From NCBI GenBank assembly GCA_039802605.1, contig JBDRWW010000002.1, positions 32,001 to 96,000 on the forward strand: a DNA stretch of 64,000 nt. Direction: 5' to 3'. Position numbers and translations under genes: made by a program. The stretch's first letter is position 1, and each line of letters starts with the position of its first letter. Below the pieces are notes generated by a model that was not told the DNA's origin, ran no database searches, and was given only the letters and a program-made list of their open reading frames with translations. Source of the DNA: a candidate division WOR-3 bacterium (GTDB taxonomy: Bacteria > Hydrothermota > Hydrothermia > LBFQ01). Shown piece by piece: positions 77 through 52,472 of the stretch.

Positions 77-710
77 TTATCGTAGAATGACTTTTAGGGT
101 TGATAAAACATCCCCCTCAACACCGCTTGTGGTTATTACAAATTCCCACTTTTCACCGCTGATATACTTTCCCCTTCTGGGGTCATAAATATGGGGTTTA
201 TTATCCCTTAAAGAGGAAGAGGATGAAACGAAAACATCCTTAAATGTTAGCATTTCCCCATTTGGAAGGCGGATTTTCCATACACCCTTCCCGTATATGC
301 TACTTCCCCCAAAGTTTATAAGGAAACTATCGAGTTTAAGCCCTTTTGATACCGATACGAAAACATCCAAGGCAAAACCCTTTGCTATACCCCCCGGGTC
401 AAAGGAACATCCCTTCGGGAAATACCAAATCCCCTTTTCCAACCTTTTGGGAAAACCCCTACCCTTATAAAAGGGATTAAAAATCCCTTCGGTTTTTTTG
501 TAATAATAAATTGATAAAACCAGAAGGCTATCCGTTAAACTATCGACATAAAACCCACCCCTCCCAAAACCCCCTCCAAAGTTTATCCATCTCATTTGCC
601 AATGAAAAAACCGTATCCGCAAAGGCTTCCGCATCTTCACCGTAAACCTCAATTTCAAGTATTGTACCCATAACAAACTGCGCCCTCAAAAGGCAAATAA
701 GGATACTCAT
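77..710 (-). pseudogene. apbE: FAD:protein FMN transferase (ApbE family), frameshifted near 560-580
   Basis: The C-terminal frame (77-676) has DPGGIAKGFALD, INFGGSS and HIYDPRRG. The true N-terminus lies in another frame from the ATG at 710 (MSILICLLRAQFVMGTILEIEVYG...DKLW). Removing one G from the G5 run joins the two into a 633-nt frame. Confidence 0.8.
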
Positions 711-1177
711 AAAAACATATCAATTAAAACTTTTGCCCCCATTATCAGGATACCCGGCAAAAACAACAGGGTGCTTAAAGGTTTGATATACACAATCCAG
801 AAAGGAAAGAATTTTATAAGCCAAGGGGAGAGTATGAAACCCAAGAGACCTATAAATGTAAGGTTTATTATGGCGGATTTTAACTTTTGGCTTGTGTTTG
901 AATACGAGAAAAATACCGAGAACACGAAGGCTATTAAAGGTGATATAAAGGAATGGAAATGGGAAACCTCCGCCAATTCAAGTACCGATTTTCCGAACTT
1001 CATTTCCGAAGGATTTCCCTTATAGTAATCCATCAACCTGTGTAAAAACCCGCTTAACGGGGAATGGGAAACCGTTTGATCAACGATAATGAAGGCAAAG
1101 AGGAAGCCAAGAATTGTAAAAGCGTAAAGCCATAAAAACGAAACCTTTATGCCAGATGGTAAATCCTTTAACTTCAT
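707..1177 (-). CDS. Small integral membrane protein (about 4 TM) with an HxH motif, in the flavinylation operon
   Basis: Hydrophobic segments and ELAEVSHFHSF. ATGA overlaps with both neighbours. Confidence 0.65.
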   Translation of the reverse strand: MKLKDLPSGIKVSFLWLYAFTILGFLFAFIIVDQTVSHSPLSGFLHRLMDYYKGNPSEMKFGKSVLELAEVSHFHSFISPLIAFVFSVFFSYSNTSQKLKSAIINLTFIGLLGFILSPWLIKFFPFWIVYIKPLSTLLFLPGILIMGAKVLIDMFL

Positions 1178-1662
1178 TTCCCGAATACCATATCGTAAAG
1201 GAACAATATCCTCTTTACACCCGCGGTAATTGACTTTACGGATATTGTGGCTCCTGGGATGTTTCTTATAACTTTTCCGTGGGCTAAGTCGTCTTCCTTA
1301 CCCTTGCCCTCAAACTGTTTTAAAAAGGTTTTTTCCTTTATCTCCCACCCGTACTTTTCCCTGTATATCAGAATTTCCACGGCTTTTACCTTACCCTTAT
1401 CATCCAAAACCACCATATATGTTATGGGCATATGCTTTCCCTTTATATCGTCTATAACAAGGGTTGTATATAACTCTCCGCCTTTATATCCCCTGTAAAA
1501 ACGCAAAACTTTACGGGAAAAAGGGGGATGACCCCACCTCCTCAAACTGTCGTTTATCCCCTTATCAACCCTTACATCCACGGTATCAACCCTTTCGCAA
1601 CATTTCAGGTATTTCTCCATTAGGTGTAGGGAATCTATGTAAAACTGGGAGATCGGCATCAT
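1174..1662 (-). CDS. FMN-binding domain protein (RnfG/NqrC-like flavinylation target)
   Basis: IRNIPGATISVKSI resembles the [ST]GA[ST] flavinylation motif. apbE is in the same operon. Confidence 0.8.
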   Translation of the reverse strand: MMPISQFYIDSLHLMEKYLKCCERVDTVDVRVDKGINDSLRRWGHPPFSRKVLRFYRGYKGGELYTTLVIDDIKGKHMPITYMVVLDDKGKVKAVEILIYREKYGWEIKEKTFLKQFEGKGKEDDLAHGKVIRNIPGATISVKSITAGVKRILFLYDMVFGK

Positions 1663-2418
1663 AACAGTATGCCCATTATAAGGCGGAAGTTAAAACTCTC
1701 GTGTTCATCAAGTACCCTTGTTATCTGCGGATAAAGACCTGCCGTTATCCAGAACTTGGTATGGGAGTAGTGTATTACCGGACCTATGAATAGGGCAAAG
1801 TGCTCCGCGTTTCCGGAAGGGAAAACCTTATCCGGCCACTCGCTATGAGACCAACCCTCAAAGCCTACTGAAAAACTTCTATCACCTATGGGGAATTTAT
1901 ACACCAATCCACCGGTTATTGAAAACTCGGCTTCCCTTTCAATTTCATCGTACCCCTCGCGCTCAAACTCCGTTTCACCGATAATATTAGAAGCCAACTG
2001 AAAGTTCCCTATATTCTTGGAGAGTAAGAGCTTGACTTCTCCCTTTACCTCGTGGCCGTAATAGTATAACTCTCCATAAAACCCAAATGGGGGTAACCTG
2101 TAAATCCAGGCCCAAGCCAATCCTTTAAAGGATGTTTTATTAACATTTTGACCGTCTGGATAGGCGATAAACTCCTTTCCAAAATCGAGGTATATATCCG
2201 TACTCAGGTTTGGCGTGAAGGCATGTTCCAATTCAAGCCTTAGGTCCTGCGCGGAATAAAACTGACCTTCCCTACCTTGTTTTATCGTTAACCAGGTTTC
2301 AAACTCCGTGAAACCGCTCGGCAGGAGATCCGTATCGTATGTGTATAGGAATAACCTCTCATGCCCCCAAAGGCCAAAGGAGTGCCGGTAAAACGCTTAA
2401 ATAAATTATTCTTTTCAT
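1659..2418 (-). pseudogene. Outer-membrane beta-barrel protein (DUF6662-like), frameshifted by a 7-bp duplication just after the signal peptide
   Basis: The 1659-2231 frame stays open upstream as HERLFLYTYDTDLLPSGFTEFETW...DLRLELEH. The signal peptide MKRIIYLSVLPALLW starts at 2418 in another frame. ccaaagg is tandemly duplicated at 2367-2380; removing one copy gives a 753-nt ORF. Confidence 0.75.
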
Positions 2419-2616
2419 AGGTTGGGTATTTTTTGGTTGTAATCCTGACTAAAAAGGTCAAGATTTACGAGTAAGTTGCAATTGCATATGGTGGCACATA
2501 ATTTATGCCAACAACCCATATAATTGAGGAATTGAAACATCGCCGGGATCCGGCGTATTAAGAGAAGCCGTGGCTTAGGCCGCACGCATCGGCAAATATA
2601 ACTAAAAAAACCTCTG

Positions 2617-3996
2617 CTATTTTACAATTACTTTTTTAGCCTTGTTCTCATTAACTATGAAATAAACCCCCGAAGACCGCGCACCGCTTCTTCTCCTACC
2701 CAACACATCGTATATCGCTCCATCCTTATAAACCTTGCCATATCGTTTGCTTTTAATTCCCAATTTTCTTATTGGCATAACGGCTACATATATATCAAGA
2801 TGAGAAGAAGTATCTCGCAAATCACCCCAAGCAACATAAATTGCTGTATCCCCCAAGGCACAACTCAAAAAGTCGTTGCCCGACGAGGTTAGAATGGTAT
2901 CGTATTCAGAGGGTTGCCCGGAAACAACGAAATTTCTTCCAAAGGTATTGCCGCCGTCAAACGAAATCGTTCCGTATATTTCAAAAGGTACCGCTCTACC
3001 CATACCTCCATTTCTCCTATCCCTCCAAAAGAAAGCCACCACACTATCTTTAGCACACCCCCAAAGCATATCCTGATAAACACCGTTTACAGGAGTATCA
3101 TCGTTTAATCTGAAAGGGGTAGTCCATGTGTCACCTCCATCACCGCTAACTTGGGCAACGGCATCCGGATCTCCAAATGTTCCATCTATGCGGGTGGCTA
3201 TTATTTTGCCATTTGCGGGTATTACGATTAGAGGAGAACCAATTTTTAACAGGGTATCCGCCACTATAGACCGTGGCAAAAGGGCGGATATTTCTTTATA
3301 CCTGAATGTAAAACCTCCATCGGTACTTATCGCAAGCATATGGCGGGGAAGGGGATAATGGGATGGGTTATAGGAAAAATATCCTATATATATTATGCTG
3401 TCTCCCCAGAGGGCTATTTGACCCATACTACGGACCTGAGAGGGGAAGTTAGTGGAATCTCCTATGGGAATAAGGGGAGACCAAGTAAGACCCCCATCGT
3501 GAGAGTATTTAAGGTACAAATAATATGGAGGGGTAGCCCCCGCGATTTTAGCCTCCATAGTGGTGATATAAAGGTTATTCCCGGAAACCGTTAACCAAGG
3601 CCTGTCTATAGGAAAATCCGGCGCTTCATCGTACCGTATTATTACCCGGGGAGAATACCATGTTGAACCACCATCGGTTGAAACTGTAAGTACTACAAAC
3701 CCAGAATCCAGACTATAATCTACATATACCAAGTATAAAGTTCCGTCTTCGGAAAAAGCCATGGTGGGATCCGCGGATCTAAATCCGCCTACCACATGGG
3801 GCATAATACGAACACTTGACCAAGTAATTCCACCATCATAAGAAGACCGCACCGCTATGAACGATGTTCCAAACATCCCCTTTATCCACGCCACAACTAC
3901 ATTGTTTGGATTCGTAGGATTTACGGCCACTACCGGTTCCCCATCAAAGGCAGGGGAGTTGGATAGATTTACTTCATAAAATGTAAGGAGCAACAT
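2617..3996 (-). CDS. Secreted BNR/Asp-box (sialidase-like beta-propeller) protein with a T9SS-like C-terminal domain
   Basis: Repeated SxDGGxTW/F motifs. C-terminal IYDVLGRR...GVYFIV...KKVIVK. Confidence 0.8.
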   Translation of the reverse strand: MLLLTFYEVNLSNSPAFDGEPVVAVNPTNPNNVVVAWIKGMFGTSFIAVRSSYDGGITWSSVRIMPHVVGGFRSADPTMAFSEDGTLYLVYVDYSLDSGFVVLTVSTDGGSTWYSPRVIIRYDEAPDFPIDRPWLTVSGNNLYITTMEAKIAGATPPYYLYLKYSHDGGLTWSPLIPIGDSTNFPSQVRSMGQIALWGDSIIYIGYFSYNPSHYPLPRHMLAISTDGGFTFRYKEISALLPRSIVADTLLKIGSPLIVIPANGKIIATRIDGTFGDPDAVAQVSGDGGDTWTTPFRLNDDTPVNGVYQDMLWGCAKDSVVAFFWRDRRNGGMGRAVPFEIYGTISFDGGNTFGRNFVVSGQPSEYDTILTSSGNDFLSCALGDTAIYVAWGDLRDTSSHLDIYVAVMPIRKLGIKSKRYGKVYKDGAIYDVLGRRRSGARSSGVYFIVNENKAKKVIVK

Positions 3997-8995: not shown

Positions 8996-9493
8996 ATGCG
9001 AATTGTGGTTATTGATTCCGATGTTTTAATAGATATTGAAAATATCGTTTCAACTAGCCGCGAGATTTTGAGGAAAGTAATAAAAACTTTTCTAATATCT
9101 TTTTGCGGGGCGAATTATATTTTGATACCCAAGACCGTAAGTAAAGAGGTGGGCGAACGCATAATTCAAAACTTACATTATTATTCCAACGACTTTGTAG
9201 GTTTTGAGATTTGCGAGATTTCAAATCAAAGGGAAATTGAAAACCTGGTTAATAGGTTTTTTAAGGTTGTAAAGGCTAGCAAAGAACACCGGGGAGAAGC
9301 CGATGCTATAAATCAGATTTTAAAAATTGGGAAGATGGATAACAAAACCAAAATAAAACGATATGGTTCCAATAGAATTGAACTTATATTTGTATCCGGA
9401 GATAAAGGGGCTTTAAATGTTGCGGAAAATTTGGGGATAGAGTTTATAAACTGGAAGGTTATTAAACCGTATTTAATGGAGATTTCAAGATAA
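8996..9493 (+). CDS. PIN-domain (VapC-like) ribonuclease
   Basis: IVVIDSDVLID, V..E, GEADAI and SGDKGA match the PIN acidic catalytic pattern. Start directly abuts the upstream stop (TAAATG). Confidence 0.7.
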   Translation: MRIVVIDSDVLIDIENIVSTSREILRKVIKTFLISFCGANYILIPKTVSKEVGERIIQNLHYYSNDFVGFEICEISNQREIENLVNRFFKVVKASKEHRGEADAINQILKIGKMDNKTKIKRYGSNRIELIFVSGDKGALNVAENLGIEFINWKVIKPYLMEISR

Positions 9494-16137: not shown

Positions 16138-16211
16138 AAGGGGATTATAAAGTTGAAGCGTAATTATGATTACTCCGCAAACAGACCTTACCCCCTTATA
16201 ATATCCACATT

Positions 16212-17771
16212 ATGGTAGGTATGCTATTCATAATTGCCGGCGGAGGACCCGATGGATATGGGTATTACTGGTTTGATAACGGTGATGGGGTGCCTTTTGA
16301 GTGGTATGACCTGCAAAATCCACCCTCATGGGCGTATGTCCCTATAATGGATTCCGCGGATGGTACATTGGCAAATGCCATGTGGATACCAACCTCTGCA
16401 CAAACGAGGATAACGGGAGGTGACGAGCAGTATAACAACTCACAAACCCTACCCTTTAATATTACATATTTTGGAAATACCATACCCGCGGGTTCTAATT
16501 TTACAATCTCAACAAACGGTTGGCTTGCATTCGCTTCATACACTTCACCATACCTTTCAAACACATCGTTTCCAAATCCCGCCTTACCAAACAACATAAT
16601 AGCACCTTTTTGGGATGACCTCGCGAGTAGGGTATGGGTGGGTGTAATAAATGATATAAGGACATATTGGCCACTCTGGCCCGATTCAACGGCCGCTTTG
16701 GTTATAACATGGGATAGTGCGGGTTATTGGTTATCCTCCGACTCAAAGGTTGCGGAATTTCAGGTTGTAATACTTGATACCACGGATCCGAACGGGAACA
16801 ACATAATTGCGTTTATATACAAATCCCCATTGGTTGGAACGGCTACGAGAAGCGCATCCATAGGGTTTGAAAATTCAACGGGCACAATGGGGAATGCTTA
16901 CACGGGAGTTTTAAGCGTTGGTACAACACCTTCCGCAACAAACTTTAACCCCGGTGTGGTCGTATTCAACTCGGCTTATATACCGGGTGACTCCGATGTT
17001 GTGTTTTTGGGTAGCGGTGATGAGTACTTATTCACATACAATTTGCCCTTTGATGTCAAGTTTTATGGCACAACATACGCCGCCGGTTCTCCGGTAAAGA
17101 TATCAACAAATGGTTTCATATCCTTTGATGCGAGTATAACATCACCTTATTTGAGTAATTCTTCCATACCTTCAACATTGTCGCCCAACGCTTTATTGGC
17201 AATATGGTGGGATGATAATGTTGTTGATGGGGCGATAAAGACAAAGGTTATAGGAACGGCGCCGAATAGGAAATGGGTTGTTAGGTGGGAGAGGGTTAGG
17301 AGGTATGGGGGTTCAGGTGGCACGGCGGATTTTGAGGTTATAGTTTATGAGGATACAACATCAACGGGCGACAACAAAATAGTATTCTCCTACAACGATA
17401 CAAACTTTGGGTCTTCAACACCAAGTGCCACCATAGGTATAGAGAATCAAACGGGTTCCATTGGATTACCCTATACGGGTAGCAGGATAACCGGGACACA
17501 ACCGAACATATCCGCAATACTTGATAGCACATCTATATTATACCAAACCGAAATCTTCACATCCGTTTCGGAAAGGGCTAATATGTTTAGCGTGTTCATA
17601 ACAAAAGAGGGTGTGAAAGTTATCGGAAAGGCCAATGTGGATGTTTACAACGCCATTGGTAAAAAGGTTTTATCTTCAACTGTTGAGAATTCCACTTTAA
17701 AACTTGAAGACCTTCCAAGGGGTATATACTTCATACGCGTAGGAGACAAAACCTATAAGTTTATCAGGTAA
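16212..17771 (+). CDS. Secreted protein with two tandem NIDO-like domains and a T9SS-like C-terminal domain
   Basis: GGPDGYGYYW start. The unit LPF..F/YG...ISTNG...SPYLSN...PN..[IL]A.[FW]WDD...SA[ST]IG[FI]EN occurs twice. C-terminus VYNAIGKKV...LPRGIYFIRVGDKTYKFIR. Confidence 0.75.
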   Translation: MVGMLFIIAGGGPDGYGYYWFDNGDGVPFEWYDLQNPPSWAYVPIMDSADGTLANAMWIPTSAQTRITGGDEQYNNSQTLPFNITYFGNTIPAGSNFTISTNGWLAFASYTSPYLSNTSFPNPALPNNIIAPFWDDLASRVWVGVINDIRTYWPLWPDSTAALVITWDSAGYWLSSDSKVAEFQVVILDTTDPNGNNIIAFIYKSPLVGTATRSASIGFENSTGTMGNAYTGVLSVGTTPSATNFNPGVVVFNSAYIPGDSDVVFLGSGDEYLFTYNLPFDVKFYGTTYAAGSPVKISTNGFISFDASITSPYLSNSSIPSTLSPNALLAIWWDDNVVDGAIKTKVIGTAPNRKWVVRWERVRRYGGSGGTADFEVIVYEDTTSTGDNKIVFSYNDTNFGSSTPSATIGIENQTGSIGLPYTGSRITGTQPNISAILDSTSILYQTEIFTSVSERANMFSVFITKEGVKVIGKANVDVYNAIGKKVLSSTVENSTLKLEDLPRGIYFIRVGDKTYKFIR

Positions 17772-28690: not shown

Positions 28691-28744
28691 AGCGGGGTAT
28701 TATAATGGGGTAATATTTTGATCTTCCGTAGAATTACCACCCAT

Positions 28745-29662
28745 TTGAAAATAGTTTATTTTGGAAGCGGTGAAGTTTCAAAGGGTGTTTTGGAAAACCT
28801 TTTAAGTTTTGTTAAGCCTTTGGCCGTTATAACCAAGCCCGATGCCCCAAAGGGGAGGGGGAAAAGGGTTTTACCGACTCCGGTAAAGGAACTTGCCATA
28901 TCCAAGGGTATTAAGGTGTTAACCCCAAAATCGTTAAAAGATGGGGGATTTTTAAGCGAATTAAAGGCACTAAATCCGGATTTTATAATGCTTGCGGATT
29001 ATGGGGGAATACTTCCAAAAGAAGTGCTTGAAATTCCGAGATTGTACCCCCTTTGCTTTCATCCCTCCCCATTGCCGAAATACAGGGGTGCATCACCCAT
29101 TGAAAGGGCTTTTTTTAATTGTGATGATTTCTTGGGTTTGACGGTTTTCGTCATGAACGAAAAGATTGACGAGGGGGAAATCGTTATGCAGGATAAAATT
29201 CCTTTAAACCCTTGTGAAAACACAAAAGGGGAAGTTCTACCCGAAATTACAAAAAGGGGGGCTAAAATGCTTTACGATTCCGCAAATATGATATTGGAAG
29301 GGTTTAGGAATTTCAAACCGCAAATTGGAGAATCTTCCTATGCCCCGAGATTAAAAAGGGAAGAGGAATTTATAAATCCCAATGAAGGTGTAAAGAGAAC
29401 CGTGGGGAAGATTAACGGGCTATCTCCAAAACCCGGGGCGAGGTATGTTTGGAGGGGTAAAAACTTAAAACTATTAAAGGCAAGGCCTTATCGGGATGGG
29501 TTTATAAAGGGTGATATAGGGGAATTCTTTTACGAAAAGGGGGAGAAAAAATTGCTCCTTATTTGTTCGGATGGGTGTGCGGAAATAATAACGGTTAAGG
29601 TTGAGGGGAAAAATCCAATAAGCGGATACGATTTTGCAAACGGTTATTTAAAACAACCTTAA
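28745..29662 (+). CDS. fmt: Methionyl-tRNA formyltransferase (start TTG 28745 or 28718)
   Basis: KIVYFGS, TKPDAPKGRG, HPSPLPKYRGASPI, IDEGEI. Confidence 0.88.
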   Translation: MKIVYFGSGEVSKGVLENLLSFVKPLAVITKPDAPKGRGKRVLPTPVKELAISKGIKVLTPKSLKDGGFLSELKALNPDFIMLADYGGILPKEVLEIPRLYPLCFHPSPLPKYRGASPIERAFFNCDDFLGLTVFVMNEKIDEGEIVMQDKIPLNPCENTKGEVLPEITKRGAKMLYDSANMILEGFRNFKPQIGESSYAPRLKREEEFINPNEGVKRTVGKINGLSPKPGARYVWRGKNLKLLKARPYRDGFIKGDIGEFFYEKGEKKLLLICSDGCAEIITVKVEGKNPISGYDFANGYLKQP

Positions 29663-29672: not shown

Positions 29673-29930
29673 ATGTTAAGGTGGTTATCGGCTTTTTTAA
29701 TTCTCTTTATAGGTTGTGCCACCGTACCCAAGGGTTATGTTAAAAGGGTTGAGAAATTGGAAAGGGAAGTTGATAGTTTGAGGATGGAGATAAAGAGGTT
29801 GAAGGAGGTTGCAAGAGCTTTGGCCGACAGTACGGAAAAATCCGAAGAGTATTACAATCAAATTTACGATTACATATACAAGGAGTACGAGAGGAGGGGA
29901 AGCCCAATAAGACCATCAAAGGCAAAATAA
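29673..29930 (+). CDS. Small coiled-coil lipoprotein
   Basis: Signal with lipobox FIGC, then a heptad-rich helix. Confidence 0.7.
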   Translation: MLRWLSAFLILFIGCATVPKGYVKRVEKLEREVDSLRMEIKRLKEVARALADSTEKSEEYYNQIYDYIYKEYERRGSPIRPSKAK

Positions 29931-30732: not shown

Positions 30733-33073
30733 CTATATGTTTGAAAACACCTTCCATTTTGTCGCCTTTGTATATCGCAACCATATACACACCTTTTGCC
30801 GGCATGAGGATTTCCGTCTCCCCATTAACAACCCTCTCTATAACCTTTCTTCCCAGAGGAGAATAAACCATAACCTTTGCATTCTCACCGTTGAGGATTA
30901 ACCCACTTCTCGTAGTTATAACCTTAACACCCCCTATCGTTCTCTCTTTAATTGCCAATTCGTCGTCATCACCCAAAATACAGGCCCCCAATCCACCTGA
31001 AACCACCAAAGCAAAGGGTTGAGGCCCGTTTGGAACATTAAAACCTTTAACCTTTATGGTGAATGTGCCCCTTAAACCTTTAACCCTTATAATCTCCCAA
31101 GTGTTTGCCCTGTCAGGCGGTATAGTATTATCGTTCGGTGTTAGGTTATCCGCACCCGTTGTGGGGGCATTACCTATGAATGTTTCCCCTCCCGGCCCTA
31201 TCACGGTTAGATCAAGGTCATTAACCAAACAACCACCGCCACTTGCACAGTTCGTTGAGGCCCTGTAATCGCTCCAAGAAAGGACAAACCTTGTGACCAT
31301 ATGAGGGTTACAAACCTCAACCGAATAAACCGCTGAGTCCCCAGTGTTTAACCCTCTACCCTCATCAACGAACCAAAGCCTTGACTTTCTTTCATCCGAA
31401 GAATCCGCCAAAGAGTTCCAATTATCCTCCGGAGAGAAATACATAAAGTTATCCAAAACGAACCTGCCGGCACCTTCATTGCCGTTTGGAACATTTGTAT
31501 TACCTGCCGAATATTCGTTTCCAAAGGATACATCACGGTCGCGGGCTATCGGAACAGCCGAAGCCAGTAAAGACGCCTTAACCAAGGCGGCGGAAGGGTT
31601 GTGTGAGGGGGCGGAGTTCCTCGTCCCGTTTCCGTACCAACCCTCTTTGTAATACTGCCTTATAAGTATTGCACCGCCGGCCGTGGCGGGTGTGGCCATG
31701 GATGTACCCATCCACCACCAGGCGTTTGTGATCCCACACGATGTACCACCCCATGCCGAGTATGTGGTATCTCCTATTGCCATTATATCTATCCCGAACC
31801 TTCCGCTGGGATAACTACCATAGGCGCTCCAACCCATCTTTGCATCAACCGCCCTACCCATAGCACCCACTGTTATATCACTCTTAGCCGTTGCGGGGTC
31901 GGAAGGTGTCCTATAACATCCGGGATTACAAGCGTCATCTCCATGATTACCAGCCGCAAAAACAACCACCATATCCCTGTTGTTCCAAACGAAGTCATCT
32001 ATTGTCCGCGCATCGGTGTTGTAATTCGACGGGGCACAGCGGGTAGTAATGGAACCGCATATATATCCCCAACTGTTCGTATGGACCCTTGCACCCCTTG
32101 TATAAGCATCGGTTAATACCGTGTTAAACCCGGAACTTCCTCCCCCAAGTGGGGCTTGCGAGATGATCCTTGACATATAGGCCAATCCCCTGTATAAAGC
32201 GGAAGACGCGCTCGTGGCACTGGAATAACCGACGGCAGTTCCGGCCGTATGCGTTCCATGGCAACCCGTTCCGGGACTGCTATTACAGTTTGTCCCAGCA
32301 GGTAGGGATGCCACACCGCAACCACCTCCTCCATAATTGCAAAGCGTTACGATTTTCGGTTGCCCCAATACACTGCCGGAGAAGAAACAGTGATTTCTAT
32401 CAAGACCGTCGTCGTTATGCCCGAGAATCTCGCCCTCCCCGTGCAGCCCTTTATACCATACGATGGTATCGGTTGGATTGGTTGAAGATTGTATATCAAA
32501 CCAGAGACCGGATTGGTGGGTTACGGCTTTTCTGTTGTTCCAGTTTATTATAGGATGTTTGAACTCAACAAAGAAAACCTCCGGTAAATTTGCAAATTTC
32601 CGTATTTTATCAACATCGCCCGCGACTTCAACATACGGGTTTTGGGGGTCTATACCCCTTACTTCCAAACCTTCCTTTTGCGCTATTAGGGTTATTTTAT
32701 AAATGTCGTTGGAATCTATTAAAACAAGCCTTGCGACATACTTGCCGTTTTCTGTATAGTAGCATCCGTTTTTTAACTTTTCATTTAAGAATACGGGTAA
32801 TTTGTACTCCGGGGGTATTGGTACTATCCTCGCCACATATGGCCTTTTAAGCGCTTCTTTTAAGGAGAACTCCGAACCGGAAACCACAAAAGCGTATTGG
32901 GGTAGATAATCGTAAAACCTTATACCAAGGCTTGATAATTCTTCTTTGTATTGGGGATATATGGGTCCTTTGAATTGCAGGATATGATAGGGATTGTCCG
33001 TTACCCTACTCTCCACATTCAACTTATGCCCATTTACCCATAAAGACGGCGAAAATAAAACTAACCACATCAT
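30725..33073 (-). CDS. Secreted S8 (subtilisin, KP-43-like) serine peptidase with a T9SS-like CTD
   Basis: Triad DDGLD / HGTHTAGT / GTSMATP, oxyanion AAGN, PSAALVKA, C-terminal VYSPLGRKV...GVYMV. Confidence 0.92.
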   Translation of the reverse strand: MMWLVLFSPSLWVNGHKLNVESRVTDNPYHILQFKGPIYPQYKEELSSLGIRFYDYLPQYAFVVSGSEFSLKEALKRPYVARIVPIPPEYKLPVFLNEKLKNGCYYTENGKYVARLVLIDSNDIYKITLIAQKEGLEVRGIDPQNPYVEVAGDVDKIRKFANLPEVFFVEFKHPIINWNNRKAVTHQSGLWFDIQSSTNPTDTIVWYKGLHGEGEILGHNDDGLDRNHCFFSGSVLGQPKIVTLCNYGGGGCGVASLPAGTNCNSSPGTGCHGTHTAGTAVGYSSATSASSALYRGLAYMSRIISQAPLGGGSSGFNTVLTDAYTRGARVHTNSWGYICGSITTRCAPSNYNTDARTIDDFVWNNRDMVVVFAAGNHGDDACNPGCYRTPSDPATAKSDITVGAMGRAVDAKMGWSAYGSYPSGRFGIDIMAIGDTTYSAWGGTSCGITNAWWWMGTSMATPATAGGAILIRQYYKEGWYGNGTRNSAPSHNPSAALVKASLLASAVPIARDRDVSFGNEYSAGNTNVPNGNEGAGRFVLDNFMYFSPEDNWNSLADSSDERKSRLWFVDEGRGLNTGDSAVYSVEVCNPHMVTRFVLSWSDYRASTNCASGGGCLVNDLDLTVIGPGGETFIGNAPTTGADNLTPNDNTIPPDRANTWEIIRVKGLRGTFTIKVKGFNVPNGPQPFALVVSGGLGACILGDDDELAIKERTIGGVKVITTRSGLILNGENAKVMVYSPLGRKVIERVVNGETEILMPAKGVYMVAIYKGDKMEGVFKHIVR

Positions 33074-33151: not shown

Positions 33152-33850
33152 ATGAGTCTTTTTATTTCCTTTGTTTATATGAAGCACGAGGCTTGGGCAT
33201 CCTTTTCAAAGTTCTCCTATAAGTATAGGGATAAGAGTGCGGTGGCGGATATAGGGGGATATATGAGGTTGTTTAAGTGGGGTGATCACGGTTTGGCGGT
33301 TGGAGGGGATTTTGTGGTTTGGCTGGGTTATGATGTGGGTCTAATCCAGTTGGACCCAATATATGCGGATTATTATGTTTGGTTTGGTGGTTTTAAAGAG
33401 GCAAATAGCGGAACATGGTACTTATTCGTTGAACATCCCTGCTTCCACTACATAGACAGACTTGATACATTACCCCTGTACTGGAATGCTATAAGGTTAA
33501 TGTATAGGGAAAGGGATTTTGAGATTTCCGCTGCCCAGTACATACATAGCGAAAAGTATCAATTCCTTTCAAGGGGGACGGATTGGGGTACGGATTTGAA
33601 GGTTTTTAAAAGGTTAAGGAAAAACCTTGGGAAGGATATTTCAATGTTTTTGGATTGGTATTCGTTTCTGGCTTTGGGTAGAAATTACCGAAGTTTATAC
33701 GCATCCTTGGAAGTAAAGGGGGGATTGGAGTTTATAAATGAAAATGGGGATTTTACCATATCCCTGGGTTTTAGGCCCTATGAAAGGACAGGTATAATAA
33801 GGGATGCCGAGGGTGTCCCTTATATTTCTTTAAAAGTTAGAGGATTTTGA
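33152..33850 (+). CDS. Hypothetical protein, probable outer-membrane beta-barrel
   Basis: Aromatic-rich alternating strands and a terminal Phe (ISLKVRGF). Start moved to ATG 33152, 7 nt after TAAAAT. Confidence 0.55.
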   Translation: MSLFISFVYMKHEAWASFSKFSYKYRDKSAVADIGGYMRLFKWGDHGLAVGGDFVVWLGYDVGLIQLDPIYADYYVWFGGFKEANSGTWYLFVEHPCFHYIDRLDTLPLYWNAIRLMYRERDFEISAAQYIHSEKYQFLSRGTDWGTDLKVFKRLRKNLGKDISMFLDWYSFLALGRNYRSLYASLEVKGGLEFINENGDFTISLGFRPYERTGIIRDAEGVPYISLKVRGF

Positions 33851-33885
33851 CAAGAAATGGATTTCAGCCTTAAAATTCTGGGCGT

Positions 33886-35283
33886 ATGATATATTATATT
33901 TTAAGCGCTTGCGGATGTCCCACATACAATGTCAATTTAAGCAATAGGGTGGGGAGGGATTTACCGTACAACGACCTAAACTATATCTCAACCGAAAGGA
34001 GCATAAAAAATGTCGCATCCTGCAAGGGTAAGGTTCATGTCGCTTGGTTTGCAAGGGATTTTTCGGGGAATACGGCCATACTTTACCGTAGAAGCGCCGA
34101 CGGTGGAATAACTTGGGATCCCGCCGTACAACTAACAATCGGAAACTTGGACCTTGAACTTTGGGTTCAGTGCTATGGGGATACCGTGGTAGTTGCGTAT
34201 GAAAAACTTTTCTCTGACAAGGAAATATATTATAGGTATTCCACAAACGGTGGTGCAACTTGGAGTGCGGAAGCCGTTATGAGAGGGGGTTCTTATAACC
34301 AAGAGGGGCCATCTGTGTGGATAGGTGGGAATAAACTACACTTGGCATGGGCTGATAATACACCACTCCTTCTAACCCCCATATATTATATATTCTACAA
34401 CAATAGCACAAATTTGGGTTTGAGTTGGTCGTCAAATACCAGGTTGGATTTATCAGATTCACCCATAATAGTCGGAGACCCTACAAACCCAAACATATTG
34501 CACATTTGGTTTATGATATTCAATACCCTTGAAAGTAAGGCGAGATATATAAGGAGTGTTGATGGAGGCGCCACTTGGTCTTCAACATTTGACCTTTCAG
34601 GCGGTGTAGATGCCTCCGGAAGCGGATTTTGGAGAAGACCTGTAGGTTCAATTACGGCATACGGCATATATGTACATGCGGTCTTTGTTGATGATAGGTT
34701 TGGGAATAAGGAGGTTTTATATAGAAGATCAACGAATTCCGGCGCCTCTTGGTCGGGTATAATAAGATTGACAAATACACCCGGAACATCTTGGAGCCCA
34801 TTTATATTAACAAATCCTTTGGGGGAGGTTAGGCTTTATTGGGTTGATGATAGCGATGGGGATTACGAGGTTATGTGTAAGATTTCAACGGATAACGGTG
34901 CCAATTGGTCATCCGACGATAGGCTAACAAACAATTCCGCAAGGGATGTAATGGTTAGCCTTGATTACGACCCAACGAATTCAAGATGGCATATTGTATG
35001 GGCTTCAAACGAGACGGGCGATTGGGAGGTATATTACACATCCGACCCATGTCCTATGGGAAACGACGACGAATTGGGTGTTGAAGAAAAGGCGGATAAT
35101 GGGAATTTGAGGATATTAAGGGATGGAATAGTTTTCGATTCCGATGGAGAGGTTAAGGTTTTCGGTTGGTCGGGTAGAACTTACAAAAAGGTTTGGGTTT
35201 ATAAGGGTTATATGTTAAAACTACCCAAGGGGGTTTGGTTTGTGGAGTTTAAGGGGAGGATGTACAAGGTCGTCATAAATTAA
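33886..35283 (+). CDS. Secreted BNR/Asp-box repeat protein with a T9SS-like CTD
   Basis: Six S-x-[DN]-x-G-x-x-W repeats. C-terminal VFGWSGR...LPKGVWFV...KVVIN. TTGACA (33847) and TAAAAT (33871) promoter boxes. Confidence 0.8.
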   Translation: MIYYILSACGCPTYNVNLSNRVGRDLPYNDLNYISTERSIKNVASCKGKVHVAWFARDFSGNTAILYRRSADGGITWDPAVQLTIGNLDLELWVQCYGDTVVVAYEKLFSDKEIYYRYSTNGGATWSAEAVMRGGSYNQEGPSVWIGGNKLHLAWADNTPLLLTPIYYIFYNNSTNLGLSWSSNTRLDLSDSPIIVGDPTNPNILHIWFMIFNTLESKARYIRSVDGGATWSSTFDLSGGVDASGSGFWRRPVGSITAYGIYVHAVFVDDRFGNKEVLYRRSTNSGASWSGIIRLTNTPGTSWSPFILTNPLGEVRLYWVDDSDGDYEVMCKISTDNGANWSSDDRLTNNSARDVMVSLDYDPTNSRWHIVWASNETGDWEVYYTSDPCPMGNDDELGVEEKADNGNLRILRDGIVFDSDGEVKVFGWSGRTYKKVWVYKGYMLKLPKGVWFVEFKGRMYKVVIN

Positions 35284-36439: not shown

Positions 36440-37789
36440 ATGGATAGGGGAACAAGATTAATACTATACTTCGTTTTTGTGTTTGTTTTTTTCTTTGTAT
36501 GGGATTACTTTGTTTTGAGACCTAAAAGGGAGGCCCTTTTAAAGGAAAGCGAAAAAACCGAAAAGGTTGAAAAAAGACATGAATCCACTCCCAAAATAGC
36601 ACACTTAAAGTTCAACGGATACGAATATTTAATAGATTCAAACACGGGGGCCATTTTCGGATTAAGGGATGAAAAACACAAGGCTAAAATCTCCGGATAC
36701 ATAGTTAAGCCCCTACGCGTTGATTCCCAAGGGGTTGAGGTTGTCAAAAACGGAGTTATAACGGATAGGTTCGAGATAGCACACCTGGGAAATTTTAGGC
36801 TAAAAGTGGTTTTAAAGGAGGAAATACCCTTTGAAATAACCACACCCCTAACGGAATACAATGGTTATAGGGGTGAAAGGAAACAACTTTTTATACAATA
36901 TTTGAACGGAAAAACTAAGAAATACGATTATAAAAATGCGAATATGGACTTCTATACGGATACCGTGAAATGGATGGGTTTGAGGTCAAGGTATTATTTG
37001 GCATCGGTATGGGATTTTAAGGGTTTTGCATCCTCTTTTAAGGATGGCGATAGGATAACCATAAGGTTGTATCCGAAAGGGGATAAGGAGTTTTACATAT
37101 TTCTTGGACCCGCGGAGAGGAATTTGCTTTCCGGAGAACCCGATATGAGGGCGGCTTTTGACCTCGGGGGTGGGTGGTCCACATTTATCGCATGGCCCAT
37201 ATACTGGGCTTTAATATGGTTTGAGGGTTTAACAAAAAATTACGGGCTTGCCATAATCCTTTTGGCAATACTTATAAAAATCCTAACATCACCCCTATCA
37301 ATAAATATTTACAAATCCTCTCAGAAAATGCAGAAGTTAAAACCAAAACTTGAAAAAATACAAAAACTCTATAAGGATGACCCAGAAAGGTTGCAATGGG
37401 AAACCATGAAACTTTACAGGGAAGCCGGCTTTAATCCCCTGAGCGGATGCTTGCCCCTACTCTTGCAACTTCCCATATTCTTTGCTTTATATCAGGTTTT
37501 GCAGAACGCAATAGAGTTAAAGGGGGCGGAGTTTCTATTATGGATAAAGGATTTAAGCCATAAGGACCCGTACTATGTTCTCCCGATAGTGATGGGGGGT
37601 ATAAGCCTATTGAACGCTTACCTTCAACCCGGTTTGGATCCGCAGGCGAAAAGGACATCAATGATTATGTCCGCCTTATTCGTGTTTATTTTCCTAAGTT
37701 TTCCCGCGGGTATAGTTCTGTATTGGTTAATATACTCCCTTTTGGGCATCGTTGAGCAGAGAATATACAAAGCATTATGGAAACTATAA
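36440..37789 (+). CDS. yidC: Membrane protein insertase YidC
   Basis: NYGLAIILL, NPLSGCLPLLLQLPIF, WIKDLS..DPYYVLP, PAGIVLYW. Confidence 0.94.
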   Translation: MDRGTRLILYFVFVFVFFFVWDYFVLRPKREALLKESEKTEKVEKRHESTPKIAHLKFNGYEYLIDSNTGAIFGLRDEKHKAKISGYIVKPLRVDSQGVEVVKNGVITDRFEIAHLGNFRLKVVLKEEIPFEITTPLTEYNGYRGERKQLFIQYLNGKTKKYDYKNANMDFYTDTVKWMGLRSRYYLASVWDFKGFASSFKDGDRITIRLYPKGDKEFYIFLGPAERNLLSGEPDMRAAFDLGGGWSTFIAWPIYWALIWFEGLTKNYGLAIILLAILIKILTSPLSINIYKSSQKMQKLKPKLEKIQKLYKDDPERLQWETMKLYREAGFNPLSGCLPLLLQLPIFFALYQVLQNAIELKGAEFLLWIKDLSHKDPYYVLPIVMGGISLLNAYLQPGLDPQAKRTSMIMSALFVFIFLSFPAGIVLYWLIYSLLGIVEQRIYKALWKL

Positions 37790-39683: not shown

Positions 39684-40307
39684 CATCCTTTTTGTCCTTT
39701 CCAATGCATCTTTTGCCTTATCAAATGTTGGATCCTCTTTCAAAGACATCTCAAAATACTCCGAAGCCTTTTCGTAATTCCCCTTTGAATACTCGTTTAA
39801 ACCCAGCTTATAGTAGTACTCGGCTTTTTCCCTATTGCCTCTTTTCACTTCAACGGGTCTTTCCAAAGCACCACCTTTATACACATAAAGGGTTTCCACT
39901 TTAACCACCTTTTTAACATTTACATCCCGCCATTTTAGGGAGAGGTTTGGAGAAAACAGGGGTTTAAAGTCTATAATATTAACCCCCAACTCAACGGATA
40001 CACCCAAGGGGAAATCCCTTATGATACCCTCCAAACCAATGGGTATATACAACCCGTAATCCAAATTCCCCCTTTTATACCCCAAAACCGGGCCAAAACC
40101 CGAGTAAAAGAACAGATTATCAAACATATAAAAATTGTAGGAACCCAATCCCTGGACATAAAAGTCCAAATAATCCCTTAAATGCACCCCCATTCCCGAG
40201 CGGGCCTCCAAGGAAAACCTTTCCCTATAAACCTTTAAAGAAACACCGAAAGGTTCTCCGATTAAAACACCCACTGACCATCCGGATAATGATACCAAAA
40301 GGACCAT
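39672..40307 (-). CDS. Hypothetical protein: small beta-barrel-like domain plus a C-terminal TPR
   Basis: GVLIGEPFGVSLK...IPIGLE strands. AEYYYKLGLNEYSKGNYEKASEYFEMSL TPR. Confidence 0.65.
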   Translation of the reverse strand: MVLLVSLSGWSVGVLIGEPFGVSLKVYRERFSLEARSGMGVHLRDYLDFYVQGLGSYNFYMFDNLFFYSGFGPVLGYKRGNLDYGLYIPIGLEGIIRDFPLGVSVELGVNIIDFKPLFSPNLSLKWRDVNVKKVVKVETLYVYKGGALERPVEVKRGNREKAEYYYKLGLNEYSKGNYEKASEYFEMSLKEDPTFDKAKDALERTKRMLNR

Positions 40308-40345
40308 AAACGGTAAGAATTATAACCGCGTTTATAATAGCGGTA

Positions 40346-47853: not shown

Positions 47854-47895
47854 GCGGGAATTTTAATGTTGAAAGTGCAACCGTAAAATTTCCGG

Positions 47896-50703: not shown

Positions 50704-51120
50704 TTACCTTTTAGGGCCAAACAAGGCCTTTATTCTACCCCACGAATGCTCGTCCAGAGAGGATGGAATCTCGTTTTTTCTGCCCGGAGTTGCTACCAAG
50801 AACATCCTGAAATCACCGCGGCCGTCTGGATACCTACCCATGCTCCCCTGAGCGGGGAGGCTAATCCAAGTATAGGAATCAACGGTGTTTGAACCGTTTT
50901 TGAGAACAACGCTATCGGAGTTTATACTCAAACCCATGTAAAAAACCTTATATTCTCCGGGATTAATAACACCAAATAGGTTTAGAGTTCTGTTTTTCGT
51001 TATCAAAGTAAAATCGCTTAAATTTACGGGTGTTGAACCCGTATTATAAATCTCCACCCAACCCGAATCCGAACCTACCACCCCCACTTCGTTGATTACC
51101 AAAGAAAAGGTCAATACCAC
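50704..51120 (-). CDS. Lamin-tail-domain (LTD) secreted protein with a C-terminal SWGRIKALF motif
   Basis: VINEV, WVEIYN, SMGRYPDG, TPG..N. Confidence 0.8.
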   Translation of the reverse strand: MVLTFSLVINEVGVVGSDSGWVEIYNTGSTPVNLSDFTLITKNRTLNLFGVINPGEYKVFYMGLSINSDSVVLKNGSNTVDSYTWISLPAQGSMGRYPDGRGDFRMFLVATPGRKNEIPSSLDEHSWGRIKALFGPKR

Positions 51121-51129
51121 CAGCTAGAT

Positions 51130-51191
51130 ATTATAAGGGGGAGAAATCCTTTGTCAAGCGGCTTGACAAATAAATCATACCACCTTATAAT
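51130..51191. promoter_or_regulatory. Back-to-back divergent sigma70-type promoters
   Basis: Plus strand: TTGACA 51163-51168, 17 nt, TATAAT 51186-51191, 9 nt before ATG 51201. Minus strand: TTGACA 51152-51157, 16 nt, TATAAT 51130-51135, 9 nt before GTG 51120. Confidence 0.85.
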
Positions 51192-51200
51192 GCCCGTACT

Positions 51201-52472
51201 ATGCTTTGGACAATATCTTGGGTAGTTGCACCTGTTATAAACGATACAATTTTTAAGGGGGATACATGCCCCGGAACTGCCGTCCACTCCGCATTGGTTG
51301 GAATACCGTCATCTTACGCGTGTGCGGATATAATGTTTGCCTTTGACCTAACGGGTTCAATGGGTGGGGAACTTTCGTATGCGCAAGCAAACGCAAATGC
51401 AATAATGGACAGCCTTATGTCATCAATACCGGATGTTAGGTTTGGAGTGTCATCGCATTCGGATTACCCGGCATCTTACTCCTGGTGCGGATATTCCGAT
51501 ACATACGGAATTTTCGAAGATTTTCCTTATCAACTGAACCAACCCCTAACTTATGATACCGCACTCGTCAGGTCTGCAATATACTCCCTCTCTATATTAT
51601 ATGGAGCAGATAGTCCCGAGGATTATGCGAGGCTTTTATGGGAAATGTTGAACGACCCCGGAATCGATTGGAGAAGATCTTGTGCGAGGTTCGTGGTGTT
51701 TTGGCTTGACAATATACCGCATGCTTGCGATATATACGACCCTTCAAGGCCTTATTGGACAAACACTGGGGTCGAACCCGGAAGGGATGCCACGGCTGGA
51801 ACTCCGGATGACATATATTGGTATCCCCTTTTGAGGGATTTGAGGAGAAACGGAATAAAACCTGTAATAATGGTTAGTGCAACTTATACATACTACCTCC
51901 CTTGGTGGCAGTATTGGATGTCCGATACCCTCGCGGATGGCATAGCAACCATAAGGGGCAGCGGTATAGCGAGGCAAATAGATTCCATTGTGAATTCAAC
52001 GGCCTTAACCATAGACACTTTAAGGCCTGTTGTTAGGGAACCCGCATATACCTCCTGGGTTAGTTTCACACCACCATATTATGCGGGTATAACCCTTTCG
52101 CCACCGGAGGATACATTCGGCTTCACAATAACCTTTAATGTTCCACCTGCCGCCCCATCGGGCTTACACACATTCCACATAGACTATTACAGGGATGCCA
52201 TACTCGTTGACAGCCAGTTGGTGAATTTATGGGTTTATGACTGCACGGCCGGGTACGACGACCCGATAGCTGTCAAGGAGAGGTTGAGCAGGGATAAGGT
52301 TATAATCACGCAAAATGCGGTTTATGTATCCGATGGATATACCGTTGAAGTTTATTCTGCGGACGGTAAGAGGATATACACATTGAATTCCGGAAAATAC
52401 GAGTTCAGGAATAGGGGTATATACTTCGTAAGGGTTAAGGGAGGAAAGACCTTTAAGGTCGTTGTCAGGTAA
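51201..52472 (+). CDS. Secreted vWA-domain protein with a T9SS-like CTD
   Basis: DIMFAFDLTGSMG (MIDAS), GADSPED, IDWR. C-terminal VYSADGKR...GIYFVRV...KVVVR. Confidence 0.82.
   Translation: MLWTISWVVAPVINDTIFKGDTCPGTAVHSALVGIPSSYACADIMFAFDLTGSMGGELSYAQANANAIMDSLMSSIPDVRFGVSSHSDYPASYSWCGYSDTYGIFEDFPYQLNQPLTYDTALVRSAIYSLSILYGADSPEDYARLLWEMLNDPGIDWRRSCARFVVFWLDNIPHACDIYDPSRPYWTNTGVEPGRDATAGTPDDIYWYPLLRDLRRNGIKPVIMVSATYTYYLPWWQYWMSDTLADGIATIRGSGIARQIDSIVNSTALTIDTLRPVVREPAYTSWVSFTPPYYAGITLSPPEDTFGFTITFNVPPAAPSGLHTFHIDYYRDAILVDSQLVNLWVYDCTAGYDDPIAVKERLSRDKVIITQNAVYVSDGYTVEVYSADGKRIYTLNSGKYEFRNRGIYFVRVKGGKTFKVVVR

Follow-up and report, generated by a model that had tools for sequence, protein, structure and literature searches.

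Ultra-short apolar N-termini as putative minimal Sec-type export signals in a candidate division WOR-3 lineage without a detected SRP pathway

Canonical Sec/SPase I signals are tripartite (n-h-c), measure about 18–25 aa in Gram-negative bacteria, and feature an apolar core of about 10–15 residues. Sec export can cope with very weak signals or with the lack of an n-region, as known from E. coli prlA (secY) suppressors and from mature-domain targeting. Deinococcus-Thermus and Actinobacteria are lineages rich in leaderless mRNA, and we know of no shortened signal peptides in either. SPase I substrates of Bacteroidetes carry Gln at position +1 (Q-rule; PMC5837995, PMC10653852). S. mutans is viable after SRP loss (PMC8546722), and E. 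coli SRP-deletion suppressors feature slower translation initiation and elongation (PMC7844537, 10.1101/2021.01.06.425660). Export signals as short as those reported below were not found described in the literature.

The DNA analysed is a 64,000-nt window of the candidate division WOR-3 genome GCA_039802605.1 (contig JBDRWW010000002.1, 32,001 to 96,000). A preliminary description held that exported proteins start here with ultra-short, uncharged hydrophobic stubs. The stubs are real and occur genome-wide, and all ten N-termini quoted match the translation. The features of the window are as follows.

687..710, minus strand: stub MSILICLL, followed by RA|QFVMGT, ApbE; about 50 codons farther on the frame shifts, within a G-run, and the rest is ORF 77-676.
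2377..2418, minus strand: canonical signal MKRIIYLSVLPALL; gene frameshifted at a G5 run, the rest being ORF 1659-2231.
3976..3996, minus strand: stub MLLLTFY, BNR protein (gene 2617-3996).
16212..16238, plus strand: stub MVGMLFIIA, NIDO and T9SS-tail protein (gene 16212-17771); TATAAT at 16197-16202, 9 nt upstream.
24636..24659, minus strand: stub MMWIITTF, Peptidase_C25 / FG-GAP / T9SS-tail gene, split in the assembly into three overlapping frames (24659-24183, 24225-22792, 22868-20616).
28718..29662, plus strand: methionyl-tRNA formyltransferase (Fmt).
29673..29717, plus strand: canonical lipoprotein signal MLRWLSAFLILFIGC, for contrast.
33050..33073, minus strand: stub MMWLVLFS, Peptidase_S8 protein (gene 30725-33073); TACAAT at 33084-33089.
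33152..33172, plus strand: stub MSLFISF, 232-aa protein without family; TAAAAT at 33139-33144.
33886..33912, plus strand: stub MIYYILSA, then lipobox Cys, BNR lipoprotein (gene 33886-35283); TAAAAT at 33871-33876.
36440..37789, plus strand: YidC insertase, 60KD_IMP domain; C-terminal ribosome-binding tail absent.
40284..40307, minus strand: N-terminus MVLLVSLS without n-region, C-terminal TPR repeats (gene 39672-40307); TATAAT at 40319-40324.
51103..51120, minus strand: stub VLTFS (GTG start), with a Lamin-tail domain from residue 6, directly after the stub (gene 50704-51120); TATAAT at 51130-51135.
51201..51221, plus strand: stub MLWTISW, 423-aa protein without Pfam family, whose gene (51201-52472) shows the greatest depth in metatranscriptome contigs; TATAAT at 51186-51191.
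62246..62305, plus strand: canonical signal MRKVVWFLSLMGVFLILFA|Q, multihaem cytochrome, for contrast.

Extracytoplasmic families, assumed earlier for all the examples, are recognized by Pfam in seven out of ten: BNR (3996, 33886), NIDO and Por_Secre_tail (16212), Peptidase_C25 and CTD (24659), Peptidase_S8 (33073), LTD (51120) and ApbE (710). Pfam assigns no family to the proteins at 33152 and 51201, and only TPR repeats to that at 40307. The latter lacks an n-region, as described, but features about 20 uncharged residues and is therefore not ultra-short. The normal signals at 2418, 29673 and 62246 were correctly recognized, the first in a frameshifted gene. A -10 box 7–11 nt upstream, said to mark most examples, is present in seven of the ten (those listed above). 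The box of 24659 (24670-24675, minus strand) is imperfect (TATAAC), that of 3996 lies just 3 nt from the start, and none was found upstream of 710, whose start overlaps the end of the preceding ORF.

Stubs were defined heuristically as M followed by 5–9 apolar residues without K/R, and 170 of 1594 proteins of the genome fall in this class. Like canonical signals, they reside at the N-terminus of exported proteins, have an apolar core, and often a small residue before the first polar one; unlike them, they have no basic n-region, a core of 5–9 rather than about 10–15 residues, and a total length of 6–12. SecA, SecYEG, LepB and some canonical examples are present, as in genomes using canonical signals, but here stubs are the majority type among non-lipoprotein exported proteins. 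Families that require export have them: 3/3 Omp85-family proteins, SprA, 2/2 TolC-type proteins, and 13 of 19 Por_Secre_tail (T9SS-tail) ORFs, the others comprising 2 with canonical signals and 4 with ambiguous starts. Lipoproteins mostly retain MKR-type signals. Pfam families were tallied for 146 of the 167 referenceable stub proteins, the 21 longest being excluded; they include BamB-like PQQ_2, YfiO/BamD, LolA_like, OmpA, OEP, S8, BNR and periplasmic thioredoxin-like families, as well as Ldh, 2-Hacid_dh, ABC_tran and GT1. The heuristic also picks up cytoplasmic proteins with a hydrophobic first strand, and the stub rate in relatives (2.4–2.9%) implies about 40–45 false positives among the 170.

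Gln is the first polar residue in 41/170 stubs, compared with a 5.5% share of all polar residues, a pattern suggestive of SPase I cleavage. In 25 of these 41, Gln follows A, S, G, T or C. Canonical signals of the same genome likewise end in ...FA|Q or ...YA|Q. In both signal types Gln is strongly enriched directly after the apolar stretch, as under the Q-rule; T9SS cargo and SprA are also shared with the Bacteroidetes that follow it. The parallel is incomplete, since the PF05096 glutaminyl cyclase was not found in the genome, which encodes two M28 peptidases.

Stubs are conserved across the order, keeping their length among orthologues at 40–50% identity. In a search of 20 relative genomes, all 19 TolC orthologues (two from G019, none usable from G001 and G011) reach the conserved mature start after no more than 13 residues; in the AlphaFold2 model of TolC, pLDDT is below 50 at residues 1–4 and the fold begins around residue 7. 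Stubs of 8–11 aa are kept in NIDO protein orthologues (gene 16212-17771) from 5 other genomes. In all 11 orthologues of the BNR lipoprotein (33886) the stub is uncharged, Cys occupies one of the residues 8–11, and a -10-like box lies 7–10 nt upstream. When equal-sized samples of two relatives were run through the same pipeline, stubs and canonical signals accounted for 12.2% and 7.0% in the own genome, 2.9% and 16.6% in G020 (same class), 2.4% and 19.0% in G049 (another class); G013, of the same order, has 10 stubs and 5 canonical signals among 95. The trait is lineage-specific, a property of the whole order.

Boxes of the type T[TA]A[TA]AAT peak 6–9 nt before the start (212 genes), compared with 1–11 genes per spacing at 12–53 nt. 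A -10 box at this spacing precedes about one third of the genes, a likeness to the leaderless-rich lineages mentioned above. The leaderless-type share is 34–42% in the order, about 3–5 times that of two more distant relatives (14% and 7%), and at lineage level the link with leaderless translation proposed earlier stands. It does not hold within the genome, where 40/170 stubs follow an SD site, TolC doing so in every family examined, and SD-led stubs have GGAGGTGGAGG conserved at normal spacing; leaderless-type genes are 74/170 among stubs and 59/163 among canonical signals.

Inspection of the machinery, also proposed earlier, turned up something unexpected in the SRP pathway. SecY, SecA, LepB and LspA are encoded by one copy each, YidC, Def and Fmt are present, and SecY, SecA, LepB, LspA and YidC look ordinary. 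Searches for Ffh, FtsY and SRP RNA were negative in every class genome covered: PF00448 had no true match in 60 class genomes, in 56 of which SecA was found; PF02978 was found in 0/21, RF00169 (SRP RNA) in 0/26 distinct class genomes; and with tblastn, Ffh and FtsY of a phylum relative reached no better than E = 0.15 across the entire own genome. The five weak PF00448 matches are an AAA_22 ATPase. In the phylum sample SRP RNA occurs in the lineages with two SRP GTPases, G040 being the single exception. Judged from genome sequences, absence of the SRP pathway from the class would be a new finding, and all targeting there must run without SRP. The class resembles the SRP-independent mutants in living without detected Ffh and FtsY; those, however, are laboratory mutants of species naturally endowed with SRP, while here the pathway was not found in 60/60 genomes, and YidC, as compared with the cases of SRP-independent growth, lacks an extended C-terminal tail. 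SRP loss is not enough to account for stubs, nor are leaderless genes: G020 lacks SRP yet has mostly canonical signals, TolC stubs are SD-led, and G024 has a stub-like TolC N-terminus together with SRP GTPases and SRP RNA.

Stubs could be decayed remnants of signal peptides, insufficient for export, which would proceed mainly via mature-domain targeting read by SecA, or via a factor or route peculiar to the lineage; stubs might in that case stay attached as small hydrophobic tags. This is unlikely, albeit the alternative deserving most attention. To our knowledge no h-region as short as 5–7 residues functions in E. coli, and many stubs have a large residue before the first polar one (F 6, L 4, V 2, I 2 and P 2 of the 41 Q-type stubs), a poor fit to SPase I. 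SecY offers no relaxing change at the positions which we take to be pore-ring / prlA sites: F67, I82, I86, I191, I278, F286 and I408 are conserved, and the sole substitution, I187 to A, is shared by Aquifex SecY. No translocon adaptation was thus found there to explain acceptance of short signals and, unlike in prlA strains, the stub state is natural and proteome-wide, next to a SecY with wild-type residues at these sites. The class, being devoid of detected SRP, already targets proteins by rules other than the textbook ones. Against decay, stub composition is under constraint: stubs are uncharged, strongly apolar and of conserved length, and the motif M[MILVF]W[ILVMFTA][ILVFM] marks 38/1616 protein N-termini and 9/9130 internal Met positions (about 24-fold enrichment). 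Gln preceded by small residues points to processing, and no candidate for an alternative machinery was identified.

It is very improbable that starts are miscalled, true upstream starts (non-canonical codons, recoding, read-through) restoring full signal peptides. More than 10 upstream codons are open in 63/170 stubs, about 8 of which may indeed be miscalled, with a hydrophobic segment in this upstream region; ambiguity in 4/19 T9SS-tail ORFs goes the same way. But an in-frame stop occurs within 10 codons upstream in 107/170 stubs (within 5 in 75/170), and -10 boxes or SD sites, correctly spaced from the stub ATG, are conserved where upstream sequences diverge across genomes. Among the examples, which have upstream stops in all frames, the nearest in-frame stop is 1 codon before the start of 3996 and 51120, 3 from 24659 and 710, 4 from 33886 and 40307, 10 from 51201, 12 from 33073 and 14 from 16212; those of 51201 and 16212, at 51171 and 16167, had been noted before. 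At 33152 a GTG is open 19 codons upstream, but the stretch encoded is not signal-like, and no K/R plus hydrophobic stretch was found upstream in the other two frames of the ten examples. Upstream stops are of more than one kind, so reassigning one codon would not help.

That indel errors in this MAG cut signal peptides short is hardly credible. The window does have at least 4 frame breaks in its first 25 kb, two (ApbE, 2418 gene) in or beside G-runs, and a T6/T7 difference from an RNA-library contig at 32768, but orthologues in as many as 19 other assemblies have the same stubs, promoters abut stub starts, and this assembly also contains intact canonical signals.

Stubs are thus probably minimal Sec-type signals in an SRP-less lineage. 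The minimal signal proposed in the preliminary description agrees with the genome-wide pattern, the obligately exported families and the orthologues in many independent MAGs, while export and cleavage are what we infer from them. As true N-termini of exported proteins, stubs would consist of fMet and 5–9 apolar residues, in this family frequently M-(M/I/L/V)-W-(I/V/L)-(I/V/L), without basic n-region and with a small residue last. Stub proteins would cross the inner membrane through the single SecA/SecYEG system, and their stubs are probably removed by the one SPase I present, often directly before Gln; lipoproteins, needing Lgt/LspA, mostly retain long MKR-type signals. The stub-bearing order, rich in putatively leaderless genes, lies within a class devoid of detectable SRP. 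SRP loss, leaderless genes and stub signals may be causally linked. By analogy, a leaderless-rich genome could be the natural counterpart to the slowed initiation of the E. coli suppressors.

All ten N-termini quoted in the preliminary description as ultra-short, uncharged stubs (Met followed by about 5–9 apolar residues, no K/R n-region) translate as given there (10/10). They reside in a draft genome of 1.65 Mb, assembled in 23 contigs, about 41% GC and 90% complete. The ten proteins had been taken to belong to extracytoplasmic families, and seven are placed by Pfam as listed below; no family was found for those starting at 33152 and 51201, and TPR repeats only were found in the protein starting at 40307. 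The latter lacks an n-region, as described, but opens with about 20 uncharged residues and is not ultra-short. The three proteins named as carrying canonical signals (starts at 2418, 29673 and 62246) do carry them.

Pfam assignment of window proteins with stub N-termini (start, family)
710, ApbE
3996 and 33886, BNR
16212, NIDO and Por_Secre_tail
24659, Peptidase_C25 and CTD
33073, Peptidase_S8
51120, Lamin-tail domain

Miscalled starts had been judged unlikely, and this is supported by in-frame stops 1–14 codons upstream in 9 of the 10 examples. At 33152 a GTG occurs 19 codons upstream in an open frame, which codes for no signal-like sequence. Translation in three frames of the 240 nt upstream of each example revealed nowhere a hydrophobic stretch preceded by K/R, which rules out a signal hidden in upstream coding sequence. 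The -10 box placed 7–11 nt upstream of most starts is present as a hexamer in 7 of the 10; among the other three, one start has an imperfect -10 box and one a box at a distance of only 3 nt; the third, at 710, overlaps the preceding ORF at its end.

Three genes for exported proteins are broken by frameshifts in the assembly:
540-710 and 77-676, minus strand, ApbE
2231-2418, minus strand, gene of the canonical MKRIIYLS... protein
20616-24659, minus strand, C25 peptidase with a T9SS tail
The breaks in the ApbE gene and in the gene starting at 2418 lie in or beside runs of four to five G; the three may reflect genuine pseudogenes, tracts prone to slippage, or errors of the consensus. The window further contains:
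9485-12889, minus strand, large fused MmeI/Eco57I-type restriction-modification enzyme, 1134 aa
15386-16137, minus strand, nucleotidyltransferase (Polbeta/NTP_transf_2) and HepT-like RNase pair, divergent from the gene starting at 16212; the pair resembles an MNT-HEPN toxin-antitoxin module
40346-42158, plus strand, DNA methylase and DpnII-family endonuclease, a separate pair
52493-52885, plus strand, NlpC/P60 protein of 130 aa directly downstream of the stub gene starting at 51201; the catalytic domain begins at about residue 5–14, and no signal of any kind precedes it

Stubs are far more widespread than the window. The N-termini of 1642 ORF-genes, called in the whole genome by a hexamer model, were sorted by fixed heuristics. 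N-termini were assigned to the stub class if D, E, K, R, N, Q and H were all absent before residue 7–16, residues 2–7 were apolar and no segment of transmembrane length was present.

Heuristic N-terminal classes in the genome (genes)
Stub class, 170
Canonical K/R-type signals, at most one transmembrane segment, 163
Multiple transmembrane segments, 200
Other, 1061
Too short to class, 48

Textbook signal peptides depend on a basic n-region and on a hydrophobic core at least about 10 residues long. The 170 stubs have no positively charged n-region, by definition of the class, and fall short of an h-region of about 10–15 residues: the first polar residue is at position 7–11 in 125 of them, leaving an apolar run of 5–9 residues after Met. 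A Trp-containing variant, M[MILVF]W[ILVMFTA][ILVFM], marks the N-terminus of 38/1616 proteins vs 9/9130 internal Met positions. An in-frame stop lies within 10 codons upstream in 107/170 stubs; the longer open frame found upstream of the other 63 contains a hydrophobic stretch in about 8 cases, and these may be miscalled starts. No twin-arginine (Tat) motif occurs in the stubs, which have no R; RR(E/K)FLK-type N-termini were found in two separate proteins of the genome.

Many proteins with stubs are of exported type. Por_Secre_tail (PF18962) was recognized in 19 ORFs, of which 11 score above the curated cut-off; 13 of the 19 start with clear stubs, 2 with canonical signals, and the 4 with ambiguous starts each include a stub-like option. 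Stub-class genes also coincide with all three Omp85-family ORFs, both TolC-type ORFs and the SprA/Sov ORF, in which the SprA_N domain lies within an open frame of 1842 aa; cargo and SprA/Sov translocon of a T9SS are hence both encoded. Pfam families were tallied, as family counts rather than per protein, for 146 of the 167 referenceable stub proteins, the 21 longest being left out. Exported-type families include Thioredoxin_2/AhpC-TSA/Redoxin, BNR, PQQ_2 (BamB), YfiO (BamD), LolA_like, OmpA, OEP, S8 and LVIVD; Ldh, 2-Hacid_dh, ABC_tran and GT1 are cytoplasmic false positives. Membership in extracytoplasmic families (T9SS cargo, Omp85, SprA, TolC, S8, BNR, BamB/BamD-like proteins) goes together with an encoded Sec/SPase I machinery. 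Lipoproteins are not a major stub class: by one regular expression, the lipobox [LVI][ASTVI][GAS]C was found in 4 stub proteins vs 32 proteins with canonical K/R-type N-termini, the latter visibly mostly MKR...C signals.

Stubs are conserved in relatives. TolC orthologues were collected from 19 of 20 relative genomes spanning genus, family, order and class (two from G019, none usable from G001 and G011), and in 19/19 no more than 13 residues precede the conserved mature start (L-T/S-x-D/E-x-A-V/I). Stops are found just upstream, and within the order a conserved GGAGGTGGAGG SD. In the AlphaFold2 model of the TolC of the WOR-3 genome (mean pLDDT 87.8), residues 1–4 score below 50 and folded structure begins near residue 7. 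The NIDO protein (16212) retains stubs of 8–11 aa in 5 other genomes. The BNR lipoprotein (33886) features an uncharged stub and a Cys at residue 8–11 in 11/11 orthologues, all with a -10-like box 7–10 nt upstream. Across the phylum, 28 sampled TolC loci are mixed: some have canonical K/R signals, a few stubs, and many 12–20-aa signals devoid of an n-region. Stub sequences vary between two families compared (loci L001-L024, L234-L238). In f1, the family of the WOR-3 genome, stubs typically have Trp as third residue (M-x-W); the stubs observed in its sister family f2 lack it, and those of TolC there carry Asn at positions 3 and 7 (MINIIFNL...).

Residues following the apolar run hint at processing. 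Gln is the first strongly polar residue in 41/170 stubs, and the first polar residue in 51/259 N-termini having it at position 7–14; overall, Gln makes up 5.5% of polar residues. The residue before Gln is small in 25 of the 41 stubs (10 S, 10 A, 2 G, 2 T, 1 C) and large in 16. Canonical signals of the same genome likewise end in ...FA↓Q or ...YA↓Q, as at 62246-62305 (LFA↓Q) in the window; the ApbE stub (687-710) has RA↓Q. This enrichment of Gln at the predicted +1 position of SPase I substrates, cleavage sites being placed by sequence, resembles the Q-rule of Bacteroidetes, which reportedly is not valid across the whole FCB group (PMC5837995). No match to glutaminyl cyclase PF05096 was found in the genome; two Peptidase_M28 matches are present, not typed as cyclases.

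The preliminary description proposed a link between stubs and leaderless translation. The strict -10 motif T[TA]A[TA]AAT peaks 6–9 nt before the start (39, 38, 74 and 61 genes, 212 in all), against 1–11 genes at each spacing from 12 to 53 nt; SD-like motifs peak at 5–9 nt, in 552 genes. Among the stubs, 74/170 are leaderless-type (-10 box, no SD), 40 SD-led and 56 neither. The leaderless share in canonical signals is 59/163, which rules out a strong tie of stubs to leaderless promoters at the gene level, and TolC stubs are SD-led; the proposed link stands at the lineage level only.

Contigs from two RNA libraries cover parts of the window with at least 99% identity (18/20 pieces from sediment, 9/9 from a hot spring). 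This shows only that near-identical sequence occurs in sediment and hot-spring RNA libraries. An 821-nt contig of depth 105 lies inside the gene starting at 51201, and between the bins flanking 51177 contig depth jumps from 4.0 to 101.8, the only hint of a transcription start at a start codon, although contigs cannot show transcript ends. Expression of the window sequence is plausible. At 32768, in the S8 peptidase gene, one sediment contig has an extra T in a run of six; this would break the frame, and is therefore a strain difference or an error.

SecA, SecY, Ffh and LepB had been singled out as proteins in which lineage-specific changes might be sought. SecY, SecA, LepB and LspA are each encoded in one copy, and YidC (devoid of a C-terminal tail), Def and Fmt are present as well. 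LepB has normal SSSM...KR motifs and one transmembrane segment. Alignment to E. coli SecY (5abb_A) shows that F67, I82, I86, I191, I278, F286 and I408, which we take to be prlA or pore-ring positions under this numbering, are all kept; the I187 position is Ala, likewise in Aquifex SecY. prlA-like changes are ruled out at these positions. Ffh was not found.

SRP has been described as universally conserved among organisms (PMC7844537). The Ffh M domain (PF02978) was found in 0/21 genomes, including the WOR-3 genome and 20 relatives, one of which is 100% complete in 3 contigs. PF00448, expected to match both Ffh and FtsY, gave in this set a single 28.5-bit match, identified by Pfam as an AAA_22 ATPase. 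In all 60 genomes of the class with a completeness of 80% or more (12 families, 19 genera), PF00448 had no true match; five matches of 26–30 bits, all in the genus of the AAA_22 protein, agree with it in profile range as well as in ORF size. SecA was detected in 56 of these 60 genomes. SRP RNA (RF00169) was detected in 0/26 distinct class genomes, among them all 21, and in 25/34 phylum-sample genomes outside the class; RF01854 had no match in the WOR-3 genome. Ffh (domains SRP54_N, SRP54, SRP_SPB) and FtsY of G049, a genome of another class, were used as tblastn queries against the whole WOR-3 genome, and the best match had E = 0.15; the same queries found one another's loci with E values around 1e-32 to 1e-35. 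SRP controls were positive for proteins in 14/14 genomes and for RNA in 12/14.

In a phylum sample of 41 genomes, families f6-f10, f12-f14 and f16 combine two strong SRP GTPases with SRP RNA, with the exceptions of G040, which misses the RNA, and G030, with one GTPase match only. None of the three components was found in the 7 class members and in G021, G038, G041 and G053; one weaker GTPase and no SRP RNA were found in G027, G034, G047 and G058. Strictly, matches are lacking in the genomes searched; our reading is that the class, like some other lineages of the phylum, has truly lost the pathway. If upheld in closed genomes, class-wide absence of SRP is more surprising than the stubs.

N-terminal classes were compared in four genomes by one pipeline, on a sampled sequence per genome, kin not being independent of each other.

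N-terminal and start classes in four genomes of the phylum
WOR-3 genome, first 20 loci, about 385 kb: stubs 42/345 (12.2%), canonical 24 (7.0%), leaderless-type 116 (34%), MxW motif 11
G013, same order, other family, 100 kb: stubs 10/95, canonical 5, leaderless-type 40 (42%)
G020, same class, other order, 400 kb: stubs 10/343 (2.9%), canonical 57 (16.6%), leaderless-type 47 (14%), MxW motif 0
G049, other class, 400 kb: stubs 8/331 (2.4%), canonical 63 (19.0%), leaderless-type 23 (7%), MxW motif 1

From this comparison, the stub regime and the abundance of leaderless-type genes are order-level traits. SRP loss, extending to the class, is older than the stub regime. In G020, SRP is lacking and signals are mostly of canonical type. 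In G024, SRP GTPases and SRP RNA are both present, and the TolC N-terminus is stub-like nevertheless. Because of these two genomes and of the SD-led TolC stubs, none of the three traits (SRP loss, leaderless starts, stubs) strictly requires another.

The best explanation of the stubs is that they are minimal export signals, and we consider this probable. The preliminary description knew of no account of such N-termini, and none was found among the listings and abstracts searched outside subscription journals; with respect to that literature, stubs are a new variety of Sec signal peptide. The same search, at the same level, yielded no description of a naturally SRP-less free-living lineage. A wider reading, which we hold tentatively and rate somewhat below even, is that a free-living, diderm, T9SS-bearing class lost SRP, and that one of its orders rebuilt Sec targeting on uncharged signals of 6–10 residues and largely leaderless mRNAs. 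Once SRP was lost, secretory signals would no longer need to be kept distinct from SRP substrates, as SecA/SecYEG would handle everything. In the order, genes would have moved to leaderless starts, and signals would have shrunk to the minimum accepted by SecA/SecYEG and LepB; substrates of Lgt/LspA would have been unable to follow the shortening. E. coli is reported to survive SRP deletion via mutations slowing translation initiation and elongation (PMC7844537, 10.1101/2021.01.06.425660), and a proteome translated mainly from leaderless mRNAs might be a natural parallel.

If the wider reading is true, the lineage is a natural case of SRP-independent targeting, in which SecA or SecYEG, perhaps at the ribosome, reads a signal amounting to little beyond fMet and a short apolar patch, and weak leaderless initiation may act as slowed translation does in the E. 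coli suppressors. The lineage appears to break at once two rules, that of the canonical signal and that of universal SRP, and does so for essential envelope proteins, as BamA-type Omp85, TolC and the T9SS translocon. If the stubs do function as signals, they mark a natural minimum of what SecA/SecYEG and SPase I accept, and would explain why secretome predictors that learned from canonical signals would overlook the majority of exported proteins in such MAGs; they might also serve as very short secretion tags. Were SRP absent class-wide, the old question of how membrane proteins are targeted in its absence could be put to the test in nature.
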